The notes under the pieces: generated by a model
Told to the model about the DNA's origin: nothing
The model's input: only the letters and a program-made list of their open reading frames with translations
Database searches by the model: none
Source of the DNA: a virus
Lineage: Duplodnaviria > Caudoviricetes
DNA: 64,000 nt
Direction: 5' to 3' (one strand)
IMG/VR virus record: IMGVR_UViG_3300028591_000094
Coordinates: 96,001-160,000 of that record
In this document: positions 56,604 through 64,000 of the stretch, one piece after another
How the letters are laid out: every line of letters starts with the position of its first letter
Numbering within the stretch: the stretch's first letter is position 1
Made by a program: the position numbers and the translations under genes

Positions 56604-59507
56604 TTATACAGCTCCCCAGTTGAATTCGGTTGATGACGCACTTGTTGACAATTCGCTAGTCATTTTTGCTGCCAATTCACTTGCCAGCTGGCGTGCAAAC
56701 AGGTCTTTTGTCTTAATGTCGTCAAGTATATTATATGAACGACCGTTTTCGTTGAGTTTGATTTCCCCAGCAACCTGTATCTTAATATCATTGGAGCCAG
56801 CCTTTCTGACCGAACCATTCTGCTTGACATAGGAACCAATTTCCTTGATTTCCCCGAAGATACCCTTAAATAAAACGTCGATTGGTCCTCCGCTCTTCGC
56901 AAACATAAACTGGTCTTTCGGGTCTGGGTGTATTGTGTAAGGTTGTTGGAAATCACCAATACCATCTTCAGTTTCAGTCACTACGGTCGGTGTATTGGAA
57001 TTAGATTTGGTTCCATTGCCAGGTATGACACTGTCAATTCTTTTGCTTAAGTCGCCAAGTGATTTATCTAATTTAGTAAACGCCGCAGTTGTTGTGTCGA
57101 CCGCACCGCTTAGTCCTGAAAAAGCTGTTGTATTGTCTTTTCCGTCTCCACTAAACCAGCCTTTAGCATTATCCAATAATTTACCGAAAAAATTTTTACT
57201 AGTTTCTTCTAGTTTTTCACCCGTTGCTTTAATATTTTTACTAGTTTCTTCAATTTGGCTAACAGTTTCTTTTATAACTTGATTATAATCAACCGTACCA
57301 ATCACCTTATTCATTACAAAATCATTAAGAGCTTCTACACCTTTTGGAAATTCTACCATTGCTTTGTAGAATGTGTCATTCACACCAACTTTTTGCATAG
57401 CATTCAGGAAGCCTTGCATGATATTATCCAAAAGTCGTTCACCTTCTCCACCAAATACCTGCGCCGACAATTCTAATTGTCTTCTGTTTGCTTCGGTCAT
57501 ATAGTTAGTTGTTTTTCCGTAAGTCTTAACTATATTCCCCATGTTTTTGTTATAGAAACTCCTGTAATCCTCAGTCTGGGTTGAAATTGCCGCCTTGTTT
57601 ATATCTTCGGTTTGCACACCGATTCTTGCAGCAATTGCTTTCTGAACATTCAACATTCTTTCTTCATACCCTAAGGATTTCTGTGCTACCGCCAGCATTG
57701 CTTCTTCGTTATCCTCTGGTAATATGTTTTGAAGCATTTCTGGATGTTCGACAAGCGTCCTCATATCAAGGGTTTTATTGTCTAAAGTTTTTACTTCCCA
57801 TCTGCCTTCTTTTTGGTTATATGTAGCTCTGTTACCAATTGCTCTCTTTGTTTCATCGTCCAGTCCATACCCTTTCAGCTCGCGGTTGATTATACCTTGT
57901 TTGTTATTCTGGCGAATCATGTTCTTAACTTCCTTATCGTCCATACCGAGAGCGGCAGCACGCTGTTTAATCATGTAATTCTCATACCAACTGAACTCTG
58001 TCTCACCAGTTCTTTTGTTGAATGTGCCAGTGAGGTCGTTGAACATGTTAGCCATGCGATGAGCCATATCGCCTACGTCGGCGCCAGCATCATAAAGCAT
58101 GCCGAGAGGGTCGGAATATATTGCAGCCGAACCACCGAGAACCTGAAGTTTGGCTGAAGTTTCTAGAGCGTCGGATAGATTAGCACTTGTTAGTTTGTCG
58201 CTGAACGATGTGGCTGATTGTAGATTAAAACGTGTCTGGTTTGCCCACTGTGTTAACTTCATCATATTTTCCACGCCACCCTTGAAGTTGTATTTCTGAG
58301 CAAGTTGTAAATTGTTAACTAAATCTTTACTGAACTTCGAGGCTGAAAGTCCCATCTTTGTGATTGTATGATACATCCCCTGCATCATATCTCCAGCACT
58401 GTCGATGGATGTGTTAAATACATTCATTCCACCATATAGCTGTGCTGCTTCACCCTGTGACATACCAAACAAACGTTCTGTTCCAGCTATAACTTCCTGT
58501 CCACTCAGACCTAGTAATACATTACGCTCAGATGCGTCGCCGTATTGTCTTTGTGCTTCAATTAAATCAGTAACATTTTTACCAAAAATCTCACCCATAT
58601 GTTCACCCATTGCCATCATAGCAGTGGTATAAGCCTCGCCCTGGTTACCATAATAACCCATCGTTATGGCTAACTTGCGTGAAGCTGTATCAACTTTCAT
58701 CCAAGTTTCCTGTGTAGTTTGAACTAACTGTAACCATGGGTCTAACATTGACTGTGCTTGTTGAAGGAGTTTTTCAGTTATCTCGTTCGCAGCCTGCATT
58801 TGTGAAAGTTGTAACTTTTTCTGTTCAATATCAAGCTGCATTTGTGCATTTAACGCAGTGGCAAATGCACTGGCAGCAGTTTTTGACATTCCAGCCAGGT
58901 TTCCACTAATAAATCCACTTAGTTCACCAGTAATACCCGCCAAAGTTTTATCACCAAACATTGATGCTATACCTGTAATAGCTTCACTACTTAATGAAGC
59001 TGTGGTGTCAGCGACAGTATCAACAACAGCAACGGCAGCTCCAGTAAGACCATTCACTATTGTCGCCATTGTTGTTTTGACACCGATTTGAGCGCTGAGA
59101 TTAGCTGCTTTAATACTATTTTGCATTTTAACGTTTGCTAAAACGTTCTCTTGCATCATTCTAGTATTTTCGAAAGCTAACTGGTTGGCTGTCTTAGTAA
59201 AGCCACCAGTTATTGTCTTCATACTATTACCAATAACTTGTTGTGCATAATCCAGTTCACTGGATAATATGGCTTTACGGCGCTCAAATTCAACCCGATT
59301 AAGTTCAACTATTGTTTTTTCAAACGAATAAACAACGGTGATTATTTTATTTATCACCCCGCTTGCTTTATCATAAAAATTTTCAACCTTAGACTGTACC
59401 ATACTGGCAGCCTGATGTCCGTATTCGCTCGTAGATACGTTCGGGTCGCCTTTTTGTTGAGTTAATATATCCTCTATTTCATTCCAACTATGTGAATTGT
59501 TTGCCAT
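56604..59507 (-). CDS. Tape measure protein
   Basis: 967-aa helical A/M/Q/T-rich ORF between chaperones and tube initiator. Confidence 0.78.
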   Translation of the reverse strand: MANNSHSWNEIEDILTQQKGDPNVSTSEYGHQAASMVQSKVENFYDKASGVINKIITVVYSFEKTIVELNRVEFERRKAILSSELDYAQQVIGNSMKTITGGFTKTANQLAFENTRMMQENVLANVKMQNSIKAANLSAQIGVKTTMATIVNGLTGAAVAVVDTVADTTASLSSEAITGIASMFGDKTLAGITGELSGFISGNLAGMSKTAASAFATALNAQMQLDIEQKKLQLSQMQAANEITEKLLQQAQSMLDPWLQLVQTTQETWMKVDTASRKLAITMGYYGNQGEAYTTAMMAMGEHMGEIFGKNVTDLIEAQRQYGDASERNVLLGLSGQEVIAGTERLFGMSQGEAAQLYGGMNVFNTSIDSAGDMMQGMYHTITKMGLSASKFSKDLVNNLQLAQKYNFKGGVENMMKLTQWANQTRFNLQSATSFSDKLTSANLSDALETSAKLQVLGGSAAIYSDPLGMLYDAGADVGDMAHRMANMFNDLTGTFNKRTGETEFSWYENYMIKQRAAALGMDDKEVKNMIRQNNKQGIINRELKGYGLDDETKRAIGNRATYNQKEGRWEVKTLDNKTLDMRTLVEHPEMLQNILPEDNEEAMLAVAQKSLGYEERMLNVQKAIAARIGVQTEDINKAAISTQTEDYRSFYNKNMGNIVKTYGKTTNYMTEANRRQLELSAQVFGGEGERLLDNIMQGFLNAMQKVGVNDTFYKAMVEFPKGVEALNDFVMNKVIGTVDYNQVIKETVSQIEETSKNIKATGEKLEETSKNFFGKLLDNAKGWFSGDGKDNTTAFSGLSGAVDTTTAAFTKLDKSLGDLSKRIDSVIPGNGTKSNSNTPTVVTETEDGIGDFQQPYTIHPDPKDQFMFAKSGGPIDVLFKGIFGEIKEIGSYVKQNGSVRKAGSNDIKIQVAGEIKLNENGRSYNILDDIKTKDLFARQLASELAAKMTSELSTSASSTEFNWGAV

Positions 59508-61357: not shown

Positions 61358-61972
61358 TTATTTGGTTAAGAATATTATTTCCTCCACAAGGAATGCAAAT
61401 GTGTGGTTGTTTACAATGTCAACCATCTTTGTATTTTTAAGCAACGCGCTTGAAGAACTGTCCTTAAACTTCAGTTTCAAGTCGCGTTTGGTGTATCCCG
61501 CCACTCTCTGTTCGTCGGTTAAATCTGGTGCCAGATTGATTTTTCTGGTTTCCCTTTTCCAAGCCTTAATTTCAGGCTCCAGTTCCTCGTTTTTTTCATA
61601 TATCGGCAATTGAAGGTCGATAATGAACATCTCGCCAGTCTGGTAATAGTTGATAAGAGTGTCAATATCCATCTCCCTGTTATTCATATCACGGATAAAC
61701 GCCAACGTTTCCGCCATATACACCCCCTGCTGTTTGAAGTTGGTTTTCTCCTTGGCACCCTCGTTGTTGATTGCCAAGTTTTGACCTAGTCTATGAATGT
61801 TTCTGTTGATTATGGGTTTATACGTCTGGTAAACCGACACCATCTTCTTATTATAGTTAGCCATATTCTGGCGCCATTTTGCATAGTCTTCCACCGCGCC
61901 GATTTCCTCACCGCAGTCGAAATCATGGTCGGGGTCTGAATAATTATACGGTACTAATAATGTTGCTTCCAT
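61358..61972 (-). CDS. Hypothetical protein
   Basis: 204-aa ORF, 5 nt before the next gene. Confidence 0.75.
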   Translation of the reverse strand: MEATLLVPYNYSDPDHDFDCGEEIGAVEDYAKWRQNMANYNKKMVSVYQTYKPIINRNIHRLGQNLAINNEGAKEKTNFKQQGVYMAETLAFIRDMNNREMDIDTLINYYQTGEMFIIDLQLPIYEKNEELEPEIKAWKRETRKINLAPDLTDEQRVAGYTKRDLKLKFKDSSSSALLKNTKMVDIVNNHTFAFLVEEIIFLTK

Positions 61973-62035
61973 TAAATCGTTGATATATAATGTTAATTAA
62001 CTATAATATATATAATCACGTTGAAAATTTCAAAA

Positions 62036-62293
62036 TCAATGAGGCTTTTTCCTGTTTTCTACAATTCTCTTTTTTTTCTCACCATTCTCGATGTATTTGT
62101 TCAGTTCTTCGAAAACCTTTTTTGGATTCTTTCTTATGTCATATTCCCATATTCTCAATAAAGGAATGCCGTGCAGGTCACACCACTTGTCTTTCAAAAA
62201 ATCCACAAATTTATTATGTTTCTGCATCGGGTTGAGTTTCTTTTCACCGATGACACGGGGGTCGGAGTGGTATTGTTTACCAGTAACCCCCAT
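62036..62293 (-). CDS. C-terminal half of split Vsr/DUF559-like endonuclease
   Basis: YHSDPR...DFLKDKWC..HGIPLLRIWEYDI; ATG at 62293 lies inside the upstream half. Confidence 0.7.
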   Translation of the reverse strand: MGVTGKQYHSDPRVIGEKKLNPMQKHNKFVDFLKDKWCDLHGIPLLRIWEYDIRKNPKKVFEELNKYIENGEKKKRIVENRKKPH

Positions 62294-62615
62294 CAATTTC
62301 TAGTATGAAACTAATCGGTACATTTTGTTTCTCCTGTTTTATACACTCTATACCGTCCTTGTTTTCCATTATAAACGGAATATTATCGTAGGCTGTGACG
62401 GCAAAGTCGAAAAAACGCCCAATATCCTTAGCTTCATATTGATAAATGTATTTAAGATTCAATTTATCCAGAAACTCATGAGCAAAATCGACTTCCAGCT
62501 GAGATGTACCGTACTTCTGTTGTTTCCGATTTGTTTGATGGGAGTTACCAGTTTTTGGTTTTTTTATATTTTTATTATTAACTTTAATTGTATTTTTAAT
62601 TGGTTGTTTTCTCAT
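62277..62615 (-). CDS. N-terminal half of split Vsr/DUF559-like endonuclease (copy B, intact)
   Basis: TSQLEVDF...YQY...FFDF...LEIDGGYW*. Confidence 0.75.
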   Translation of the reverse strand: MRKQPIKNTIKVNNKNIKKPKTGNSHQTNRKQQKYGTSQLEVDFAHEFLDKLNLKYIYQYEAKDIGRFFDFAVTAYDNIPFIMENKDGIECIKQEKQNVPISFILEIDGGYW

Positions 62616-63522
62616 GTATTTTAGTTATAATATCATTAATGTTATAATTTTTCTTGGTTATATAAATAATTTCAATGCCATGTTCATTACACAACTGTTT
62701 TTTTATTTCGTCTCTGTTTTTTCTTACTATATAATCTGCCATACCGCCAAAACGTTTTATGGGTAGATAATGTTGTTCTCCTTGTACTTCTATTGCTATG
62801 TTATAGTCTGGTAAAAAGAAATCTAAATATAGATTTTTTTTATATTTTAGCCAAGAAAATGTTTTTTGTCTTTCAATTTTTATGCACATATCACTTAATT
62901 GTAATCCAATATTCTCTTCCATCTGACTTTTATTTCCACTGTTACACCTTGGGCATCCTGCTCCGTTTAAATGATTCCTTGCGCTTTGATAGAATTCCCC
63001 GTGTTCGTGTTCATTTTTATCTAACACATGGCATATAATCAAAACTTTATTAGCGGCACCTGTATAATTACATTTACTGTAATCATATTTGTTATTATGT
63101 ACTTTTTGACATTCTTGAATAAACTGGTCATTTGATTTAAGTATATTTCCTGCACATAATTGGCATCCATATCCACTTAGTAAATCATTTGGTCTCGAAT
63201 AAAACTCACCATGTTCAGGACAACTAACACAAACCTTTGTTTTGTTATTTATATATTCAACCTTAGAATAATCATAATCAGGGAACTTTTGTTTACATTT
63301 TTTAATAAATTCATCTTTATTACTGCGTGTTACACCCTTACATATTGAACAACCATGACCTTGTAAATGGTCAGCAGGGCGCTCCCAGAACTCACCGTGT
63401 TTAGGGCAAATAATACATACTTTAGTTGTTGAGTTAATGTATTTCACCTTTGAATAATCATACTTATTCCCATGCACCTTTTGCGCTTTTTCAATAAACT
63501 CTTCTGTTGTAAGTTTTTTCAT
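62596..63522 (-). CDS. Free-standing homing endonuclease: three zinc-finger-like (DUF723-type) repeats + Vsr/EDxHD-like nuclease domain
   Basis: Three (K/D)YDYSK..Y....KV...C..HGEF.....(H/L)L.G.GC..C repeats; YLDFFLPDYNIAIEVQGEQHY; very AT-rich; ATG 63522 after ATATTTAT. Confidence 0.85.
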   Translation of the reverse strand: MKKLTTEEFIEKAQKVHGNKYDYSKVKYINSTTKVCIICPKHGEFWERPADHLQGHGCSICKGVTRSNKDEFIKKCKQKFPDYDYSKVEYINNKTKVCVSCPEHGEFYSRPNDLLSGYGCQLCAGNILKSNDQFIQECQKVHNNKYDYSKCNYTGAANKVLIICHVLDKNEHEHGEFYQSARNHLNGAGCPRCNSGNKSQMEENIGLQLSDMCIKIERQKTFSWLKYKKNLYLDFFLPDYNIAIEVQGEQHYLPIKRFGGMADYIVRKNRDEIKKQLCNEHGIEIIYITKKNYNINDIITKIHEKTTN

Positions 63523-63565
63523 TGTGTTTTTTAATATATTTATAAATATCAACAATTTAAAATAT

Positions 63566-63926
63566 TTATAATCCGCCGTCAACCTCAACCATAAAACTGA
63601 TTGGCACATTTTGTTTCTCCTGTCTTATACACTCTATTCCATCCTTATTTTCCATAATAAACGGAACGTTATCATAGGCTGTGACAGCAAAGTCGAAAAA
63701 ACGCCCGATATCCTTAGCTTCATACTGATAAATGTATTTAAGTTTCAGTTTATCCAGAAACTCACGGGCAAAGTCGACTTCCAGCTGAGATGTACCGTAC
63801 TTCTGCTTTTTGTGGTTTGATTGACGGTGGCTACCAGTTTTGGAACTCTTCGTTTTTTTCTAATTATTTGTCTTTTTAACGTCGGTAAAATTTACGACCG
63901 TTTTTTTTTATCGGCTGTTTCCTCAT
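63566..63926 (-). pseudogene. Degraded original 5' half of the Vsr-like gene (copy A)
   Basis: MRKQPIKK.../KYGTSQLEVDFAREFLDKL...FMVEVDGGL*; frameshift in the A9 run (63901-63909) and in-frame TAG at 63860-63862. Confidence 0.8.
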
Positions 63927-64000
63927 ACCATGTCTATTAAGTTTCTCTGAAATAATTAGTCAATTTTTCAAATGTAATATATTTATTAATATAAAATAAC

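Follow-up and report, generated by a model that had tools for sequence, protein, structure and literature searches.

The locus described here lies at positions 62036-63926 of a 64,000-nucleotide stretch of viral DNA (the window; positions 96,001 to 160,000 of IMG/VR record IMGVR_UViG_3300028591_000094), where a homing endonuclease gene (HEG) interrupts a gene for another nuclease. The record, 168 kb long and an estimated 45% complete, belongs to a jumbo myovirus. All features of the locus are on the minus strand of the window, in the order: a first copy of the 5′ half of the target gene (copy A), a promoter-like motif, the HEG, a second copy of the 5′ half (copy B), a 10-nucleotide spacer that opens with a stop codon, and the 3′ half of the target gene. 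On one side the locus is flanked by a divergently transcribed gene for a 130-amino-acid protein, which stands beside a T4 gp19-like tail tube gene, and on the other by genes of the baseplate region. Based on this layout and its counterparts in related phages, the region is likely to be a mobile HEG cassette, inserted in the catalytic-motif codons (E-x-D-G-G-aromatic/aromatic-H-S-D) of a resident gene for a Vsr/EDxHD-like nuclease. The original prediction, which had been made from the window alone, described the locus correctly in every detail, base for base. Its interpretation held for the replacement of the 5′ half, the decay of copy A, and the fold shared by both nucleases, but not for the scheme of a supplied start codon and two chains as a general design. 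No match to the locus was found among the INPHARED phage records, either by DNA or by protein.

Copy A (63566-63926) is what is left of the displaced resident 5′ half. It starts with an ATG at 63926, and its N-terminal region matches the intact allele P0002/L358 of a relative. Comparison with L358 confirmed that copy A is a pseudogene, as had been predicted: a run of 9 A residues (63909-63901) replaces the 8 found in L358, which shifts the frame, and an in-frame TAG (63862-63860) has been inserted. Copy A ends with ...EVDGGL and a TAA stop codon (63568-63566). This stop codon, together with an AT-rich leader, forms the left end of the cassette (63523-63570). The leader contains the motif TATTTAT (63548-63542), 26 nucleotides ahead of the ATG of the HEG. 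The coding strand of the window contains 19 copies of the motif, which was found at most 80 nucleotides upstream of 10 of the 43 open reading frames (ORFs), where about 1 would be expected. It is enriched 27-53 nucleotides upstream of ORF starts, for example at 59507, 51207, 41293, 31671, 28777, 14222, and 10414. TATTTAT is probably a promoter element of this phage, and its enrichment, along with its position before the HEG, supports the presence of a promoter borne by the cassette itself.

The HEG (63522-62596) encodes a protein of 308 amino acids, with 3 DUF723/DUF4379 zinc-ribbon modules and a C-terminal Vsr-like nuclease domain, and has a GC content of 0.24-0.35, against roughly 0.39-0.45 in the flanks. 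Residues D234, E245, Q247, G248, H251, D271, and K274 are invariant in 23 homologues, and the best structural matches to a model of the C-terminal domain were Vsr and I-Bth0305I. A group I or group II intron or an intein as carrier of the HEG was ruled out, as the HEG forms an ORF by itself, preceded by its own leader, and a search of positions 61800-64000 against Rfam returned no intron RNA or other known RNA at E<=1.

Copy B (62277-62615) encodes the 112-amino-acid replacement 5′ half carried by the cassette. Its start overlaps the stop of the HEG by 20 nucleotides, out of frame, and it ends with ...EIDGGYW followed by TAA. Copies A and B are approximately 88% identical from the KYGTS codons on. 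Where copy A reads GTT-GAC-GGC, copy B reads ATT-GAT-GGG, which gives rise to an ATG (62293-62291) that is lacking in copy A. This ATG lies 14 nucleotides upstream of the stop of copy B, in frame with the 3′ half, for which the original prediction proposed it as a start codon. Relative to intact alleles, copy B has 10 extra nucleotides (62279-62270), which constitute the stop-led spacer (TAAACAATAC). The spacer sits between a Trp codon and the codon for the catalytic His, and breaks the contiguous DGG-aromatic-aromatic-H coding sequence that is the presumed target of the HEG. The 3′ half (62036-62269; HSDPR...KKPH, 77 codons and a stop) follows in the +1 frame, from the His codon CAC (62269-62267) to the stop codon at 62038-62036. 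It is of the resident type, with its first 170 nucleotides about 98% identical to intact L358.

Searches of IMG/VR and metagenomes recovered the contiguous, uninterrupted alleles that had been predicted. In relatives, the same syntenic slot is occupied by a single ORF encoding 193-196 amino acids, which reads ...EVDGG(F/Y)(F/Y)HSDPR... across the position of the break. An AlphaFold (AF2) model of the intact protein (predicted local distance difference test score 80) gave as its top hits the catalytic domain of I-Bth0305I (3R3P; probability 0.99), Vsr (1CW0; 0.97), and a DUF559 protein (3HRL; 0.94). Residues E113, D115, G116, and H120 are invariant, and the break falls in a loop of the model that links the strand bearing E113-x-D115 to the catalytic H120. 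These models suggest that the target is a Vsr/EDxHD-like nuclease with an E-x-D ... H-x-D motif. They also agree with the proposal that target and invader share a nuclease fold, as both model as Vsr/I-Bth0305I-like, although the Foldseek E-values for these matches were weak (0.005-0.02). The DUF559 signal of the target protein was weak as well (8 of 41 members), and sequence searches of the PDB found nothing significant.

Evidence that the cassette moves came from 4 independent assemblies (L359-L362), in which the HEG, copy B, the spacer, and the 3′ half recur with an identical copy B protein. From approximately codon 18 of the HEG to just beyond the stop of the 3′ half, these assemblies are 98-100% identical to the genome studied here, while the flanks show 55-90% identity. 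A nearly identical tract within flanks this divergent indicates that the unit is mobile, and the allele of the window thus occurs in at least 2 genome backgrounds. Copy A is absent from these 4 assemblies, and the start of the HEG has been replaced by an IS607-like unit (L359:1-2640, L360:1-1640, L361:1-1620), made up of genes for a 207-amino-acid MerR/resolvase protein and a 548-amino-acid TnpB and an ORF of 104 amino acids. In 3 of the 4 (L359, L360, and L362), the ORF of the HEG is also broken, into 202 or 215 amino acids plus 48.

The same architecture was found in other lineages. In L089, L090, and L259, an HEG of 312-313 amino acids overlaps the start of a 5′ half that ends at a spacer, partial HEG ORFs at contig ends overlap the 5′ half likewise in L258, L263-L265, and L269, and an HEG is also adjacent in L257. 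Two further alleles with a spacer, L088 and L260, have no HEG. As these have kept both the upstream remnant and the last dozen or so codons of the HEG, it appears to have been lost by internal deletion, with retention of the spacer. Overall, an adjacent HEG accompanies spacer alleles in 6 lineages, and intact alleles at 1 of approximately 58 syntenic loci (L231). Homologues of the HEG were confirmed in 187 stretches of IMG/VR, with at most 5 per contig, and their presence is sporadic among otherwise syntenic genomes, with signs of horizontal transfer.

Each HEG-bearing locus with sufficient upstream sequence carries a remnant of a 5′ half upstream of the HEG. These remnants consist of a start codon and a few further codons, an internal deletion, and the final codons ...I-E-(I/L)-(D/N)-G-G-(Y/C), followed by TAAA and the leader of the HEG. 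They resemble the local resident allele rather than copy B. Those of L088, L089, L090, and L259 are homologous to copy A of the window, and end ...GG-(Y/C) and TAAA ahead of the HEG or what remains of it. Copy A is broken or deleted in every genome in which it was seen, and the window, where it is still nearly full length, represents the youngest stage of the element. In the other HEG-bearing relatives, copy A has shrunk but still breaks off after the same codon; the order of resident 5′ half, HEG, and foreign 5′ half is therefore intrinsic to the element, and not an assembly artefact. These relatives also bear out the prediction that the HEG arrives together with a replacement 5′ half while the resident one decays. 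Together, these comparisons demonstrate the architecture of the cassette, its mobility, and the decay of copy A.

Pairs of genomes that are 97-100% identical elsewhere differ in patches that begin exactly at the spacer. Between L089 and L090, such a patch extends from the spacer approximately 280 nucleotides into the 3′ half; between L259 and L260 it is shorter (about 100 nucleotides), with the same starting point. For L088 and L089, the proportion of synonymous differences (pS) is 0.03 in the 5′ half and 0.78 in the 3′ half. In line with a foreign origin of the 5′ half, identity to known intact alleles is lower in the 5′ than in the 3′ halves, with 85% versus 94% in the window, 78% versus 95% in L257, and 92% versus 97% in L364. 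The ends of copy A, the joints of spacer and cassette, and the starts of the recombination patches meet at one place, the DGG-aromatic-aromatic-H codons, from which we infer that the HEG cleaves intact alleles there. A second divergent patch between L089 and L090 (73-87% identity; L089:2340-2520) runs from about 60 nucleotides before to 120 nucleotides after the start of the HEG. It begins at the joint of the copy A remnant and the HEG leader, mirroring the patch at the spacer.

The HEG and the adjacent copy B diverge together (pS 0.35-0.9), with ratios of nonsynonymous to synonymous differences (pN/pS) of 0.14-0.31, and both are under purifying selection. That copy B stays intact under selection, at pS values of 0.5-0.9, while copy A decays in the same genomes provides an internal control, and is the best evidence that the rebuilt gene matters. 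The 3′ halves form an uninterrupted ORF, with no stop or frameshift, in all 14 lineages. Most reach the conserved ...PH terminus, with altered C-terminal tails in L263-L267. Their pN/pS is not raised (0.185 vs. 0.171), a measure that cannot tell ongoing selection from recent origin. As the 3′ halves are young by recombination, neither their intactness nor their normal pN/pS is proof of expression.

Based on these data, the following mechanism can be proposed. The HEG would cut an intact allele at the DGG-aromatic-aromatic-H motif, after which repair would copy in the cassette, using the remnant end of copy A on one side and the 3′ half on the other as homology arms. An in-frame stop would close off the displaced resident 5′ half, the TATTTAT leader would drive the cassette, and the foreign 5′ half that it carries would take the place of the resident one. 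The spacer would then act as the immunity determinant, sparing the rebuilt gene from renewed cutting; were copy B fused directly to the 3′ half, the presumed target would form again, which the few extra bases prevent. In most relatives, ribosomes may restore the intact protein by hopping a short way from one matched codon to the other.

This last step builds on a family of spacer alleles. Spacers of 4-12 nucleotides were found at this site in 14 junction types, all verified at the DNA level, which cover all three frames: the offset is 0 in 6 types, +2 in another 6, and +1 in the window and L268. In the notation used here, the take-off codon comes first, brackets enclose the spacer, and the codon just ahead of the point of resumption comes last. 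The junctions read TGG[TAAGAA]TGG in L088, TGG[TAAAAA]TGG in L090, TGG[TAAGAA]TGA in L089, TGG[TAAAA]TGG in L257, TGG[TGACA]TGG in L258 and L091, TGG[TGAAGA]TGG in L259 and L260, TGG[TAAAA]AGG in L368, and TGG[TAAACAA]TAC in the window. In L268, the junction GGG[TAGT]GGC occupies an independent site 6 nucleotides upstream. The spacers of the remaining types all follow TGG; these are TGAAATCA (before TGG; L261 and L262), TGACGACA (before TGG; L269), TGAATATAA (before AGG; L263-L265), TGACAAAACTAA (before AGG; L266 and L267), and TGACAAAA (before TGT; L364). The landing codon is cognate in 8 of the 14 types (TGG/TGG in 7, GGG/GGC in 1), near-cognate in 5, and non-cognate in the window.

Two protein searches recovered 24 distinct clusters of truncated proteins at 90% identity, of which 22 end exactly in ...DG[GSD]YW and 2 in ...DGG; none has a short out-of-frame extension. 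One of these clusters comprises 43 proteins, encoded on 75 contigs with lengths up to 332 kb. Other searches were less productive. Profile-pattern scans of IMG/VR and metagenomes yielded almost only intact alleles, as the pattern demanded the intact motif. A scan of IMG/VR with a degenerate junction pattern gave 89 stretches, with no real allele among the matches listed, and the 3′ half as a lone protein query had no match in IMG/VR.

For the family as a whole, the junctions point tentatively to a translational hop, in which the peptidyl-tRNA leaves the TGG or GGG codon before the stop, crosses the spacer, and pairs again with a cognate codon. Translation would resume at the His or Tyr codon, which would yield an intact single-chain nuclease, with the N fragment as a termination product. 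Several features of the junctions fit this reading. In each of the 14 types, no nucleotide separates the stop codon from the last sense codon, the 24 protein clusters end exactly there, and neither readthrough nor a single type of frameshift fits all three offsets. For 8 of the 14 types, a hop would restore the sequence ...DGGYWHSDPR... or ...DGGYYHSDPR..., regardless of frame. TGG precedes the His codon in 7 spacer alleles, whereas in the intact family it does so in 12 of 107 alleles, the other 95 having TAT, TTT, TAC, or TTC; L268, at its independent site, has GGC after GGG. The AGG, TGA, and TGT of other spacer alleles never precede His in the intact family. In addition, the 3′ halves are complete in all lineages, without a raised pN/pS, and the layout parallels that of the MobA element of phage T4.

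Not all observations favour a hop, however. Five landing codons are near-cognate only (AGG in 3 types, TGA, and TGT), and in the window the tRNA(Trp) has no cognate landing site, as the codon before His is TAC. A hop from TAC to TAC in the window would require take-off before the Trp codon is read, and its DGGY-H product would be one residue shorter, with the same spacing as the Q-G-E-Q-H motif of the HEG itself. The duplicated TGG could also be a relic of the formation of the cassette end, and the 3′ halves may be recent or refreshed by recombination. Minimum-free-energy folds of 12 junctions revealed neither a common take-off hairpin nor a conserved hairpin around the spacer. They did show possible long-range pairing of the QNVP codons with the HSD codons, which can also be explained by the conserved amino acids. 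Readthrough by suppressor tRNAs was ruled out, as none was found among the 28 tRNAs of the genome, and 8 of the 14 junctions are out of frame. The cluster of 28 phage tRNA genes includes tRNA-Trp(CCA), tRNA-Gly(UCC, GCC), and 2 tRNA-Tyr genes. Within this cluster, but outside the window, ARAGORN additionally detected a tRNA-like gene with a 6-nucleotide anticodon loop and a two-base “anticodon” AT (G000:C1:61018-61090).

A less probable explanation, and on balance a rather doubtful one, is that the rebuilt gene is dead. The spacer would then just shield the cassette from self-cleavage, with either the N fragment or nothing functional, and the 3′ halves would persist through recent invasion and recombination with intact alleles. 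The patchy replacement of 3′ halves from the spacer onward, and their closeness to intact alleles, are in line with this. So are the degenerate landing codons and double stops of some alleles (L263-L267), the substitution of a nearly invariant His in L266 along with its changed C-terminal tail, and the decay of the HEG itself in L359, L360, and L362. On the other hand, copy B has remained intact under purifying selection over deep divergence, while copy A decays fast in the same genomes, and in none of the 14 lineages does the 3′ half contain a stop or frameshift. Moreover, a cassette would gain nothing from carrying 340 nucleotides of replacement for a dispensable gene.

The original prediction had proposed instead that the cassette supplies a start codon, resulting in a two-chain nuclease. 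For the window, this would mean that the ATG at 62293 starts a C fragment (MGVTGKQYHSDPR...), which assembles with the 112-amino-acid N fragment. We consider this improbable, even though the position of the ATG, in frame and 14 nucleotides upstream of the stop of copy B, suits termination-reinitiation, and the break in the modelled loop between the E113-x-D115 strand and H120 would suit a split protein. L268, which likewise has a +1 offset, also carries this ATG in frame, and the allele of the window has spread to at least 2 genome backgrounds. Yet the ATG is an automatic result of the GAT-GGN codons for Asp-Gly, and it is out of frame in 12 of the 14 junction types. The N- and C-terminal extensions of split nrdA and topoisomerase genes are also absent here. 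In the 6 in-frame alleles, moreover, as in L257, the interval from the stop to the codon of the catalytic His contains neither ATG nor GTG nor TTG. Separate initiation thus fails as a general route, even if a GTG or TTG start is possible in some +2 alleles, and the proposed scheme can be retained only as a possibility for the window. There, an ATG-initiated C fragment or no expression at all is more likely than a hop.

A chimeric assembly, in which the intact allele of one strain was joined to the cassette of another that co-occurs with it, is very improbable: although the joint of copy A and the HEG occurs in this record only, and an exact look-up of the HEG protein found no second contig, the lesions in copy A are not expected of an intact allele from a second strain, and in the remnants of L088, L089, L090, and L259 the break comes after the same codon, with the TAAA leader next to it as in the window.

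For the mobile cassette as such, several observations call for caution. The target site of the HEG was deduced only from the positions of junctions and recombination patches, and the copy A/HEG joint of the window comes from a single assembly. The 3′ halves are just 3-6% diverged from known intact alleles in three lineages, so that their intactness is no proof of expression. Finally, L231 pairs an adjacent HEG with an intact allele that has the variant motif GSYYHGDPR, which suggests that immunity is possible without a spacer.

Other members of this HEG family were found in different settings. In L050 (2346-4343), an HEG of 389 amino acids has a full-length copy of an unrelated small gene on either side (138 and 131 amino acids, approximately 45% identical), and the downstream copy starts within the end of the HEG, with an overlap of 10 nucleotides. 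HEGs of this family may habitually bring along a copy of the gene downstream that they target. Flanking duplications are not universal, however, being clear in L050 and weak in L052, L036, and L054. Many relatives encode a larger related HEG of 547-616 amino acids, with 4 zinc-ribbon modules and extra C-terminal domains, between the gp19-like tube gene and the divergent 130-amino-acid gene (L004:1617-3467, L088:1703-3364, L091:1806-3467, L259:248-1933, L261:1294-2937). It co-occurs with intact and spacer alleles alike, and is missing from that position in the genome studied here. Zinc-ribbon repeat remnants of a second HEG were found between the 3′ half and the next gene in L263 (990-1256), L264, and L265. 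In L368, where a spacer allele of the short subfamily occurs without a DUF723 HEG, an ORF for a T5orf172-like nuclease is found near this allele, some 1.2 kb upstream of positions 2420-2704.

HEGs are thought to enter coding sequences safely by means of introns or inteins and, more rarely, by splitting a gene into halves that assemble. The cassette described here would represent a third route, in which the resident front half is discarded, the element brings its own copy together with expression signals, and a handful of nucleotides at the joint hide it from its own nuclease. The locus is also a case of a selfish nuclease parasitising the gene of another nuclease of the same fold.

The original prediction took the splitting of nrdA by mobE as its model. 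In the Aeromonas phage Aeh1, a free-standing HEG has likewise split an ORF with no intron or intein involved, and neither part of the target has been lost. There, however, the resident halves gain N- and C-terminal extensions and assemble, whereas here the resident 5′ half is discarded and replaced, and most alleles lack a start codon for the 3′ half. The element bears a closer resemblance to the T4 MobA/gene 60 bypass cassette (Bonocora et al. 2011, as related by Manning and Atkins, bioRxiv 10.1101/2022.08.31.505936), given its recurring stop-led spacer with often matched codons. In both cases, a free-standing HEG moves as a unit with an element-encoded replacement of a target segment (HomR in T4), and a coding gap whose first codon is an in-frame stop shields the element from cleavage by the nuclease it encodes, as shown in T4 and inferred here. 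The start of the downstream ORF overlaps the HEG out of frame (8-32 nucleotides in T4, 20-32 here), the landing codon lies at or close to the end of the insert, and the HEG is often lost while the gap is retained.

The differences are also substantial. The gap spans 4-12 nucleotides here, against 50 in T4, and no take-off hairpin, Shine-Dalgarno-like element, or nascent-peptide signal like those of gene 60 was identified at these junctions. The nuclease is Vsr-like with zinc-ribbon repeats, where that of T4 is of the HNH type; a whole 5′ half with a promoter-like leader is replaced, as opposed to approximately 15 codons; and the displaced resident half is a pseudogene, not a functional gene-39-like subunit. 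The allele of the window also lacks a cognate landing codon, and bypass at these junctions is putative. The element is therefore an analogue of the MobA/gene 60 cassette, and not a member. The gene 60 bypass has been described as unique. With reservation, we suggest that the stop-led spacers evolved independently as another family of programmed translational bypass linked to HEGs, widespread in gut and rumen jumbo phages. In such a “micro-hop”, peptidyl-tRNA(Trp) or peptidyl-tRNA(Gly) would move between matched codons and restore an intact nuclease, while the inserted DNA would immunise the allele against the linked HEG. If true, this second natural system would offer many short and diverse spacer variants that are easy to test, and that could reveal the minimal requirements for take-off and landing.

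Other parts of the element have counterparts elsewhere. Free-standing HEGs of fungal mitochondria leave partial C-terminal duplications of atp6 or cob (PMC6279837); as in the present case, a foreign piece of the host gene arrives and takes over, and the resident piece is left as a duplicate fragment. There the 3′ end is replaced, often by an in-frame fusion, whereas here it is the 5′ half with its expression signals, and a stop-led spacer remains at the joint. Homing endonucleases with an EDxHD/Vsr-like fold include I-Bth0305I (PDB 3R3P) and phage Hef (PMC3239194). An E/D...H...D-type motif, as in I-Bth0305I and Vsr, is found in both the nuclease domain of the invader and the target protein. 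In contrast to I-Bth0305I, which is intron-encoded and binds DNA through NUMOD/HTH elements, the HEG described here is free-standing and carries DUF723/DUF4379 zinc ribbons. ICP1-like phages have T5orf172 HEGs with CapR/DUF723 zinc-finger repeats at recombination boundaries (PMC10448857). These share with our element the repeated DUF723-type zinc fingers and the location of HEGs at the edges of exchanged segments, but their nuclease is T5orf172/GIY-YIG-like instead of Vsr-like. Our literature searches found no description of a whole-5′-half replacement with a leader, combined with a micro-spacer in the catalytic motif and a Vsr-like nuclease that invades a Vsr-like gene. Thus, while the individual parts have precedents in MobA/gene 60, mobE/nrdA, mitochondrial HEGs, EDxHD endonucleases, and DUF723 HEGs, their combination appears to be new.

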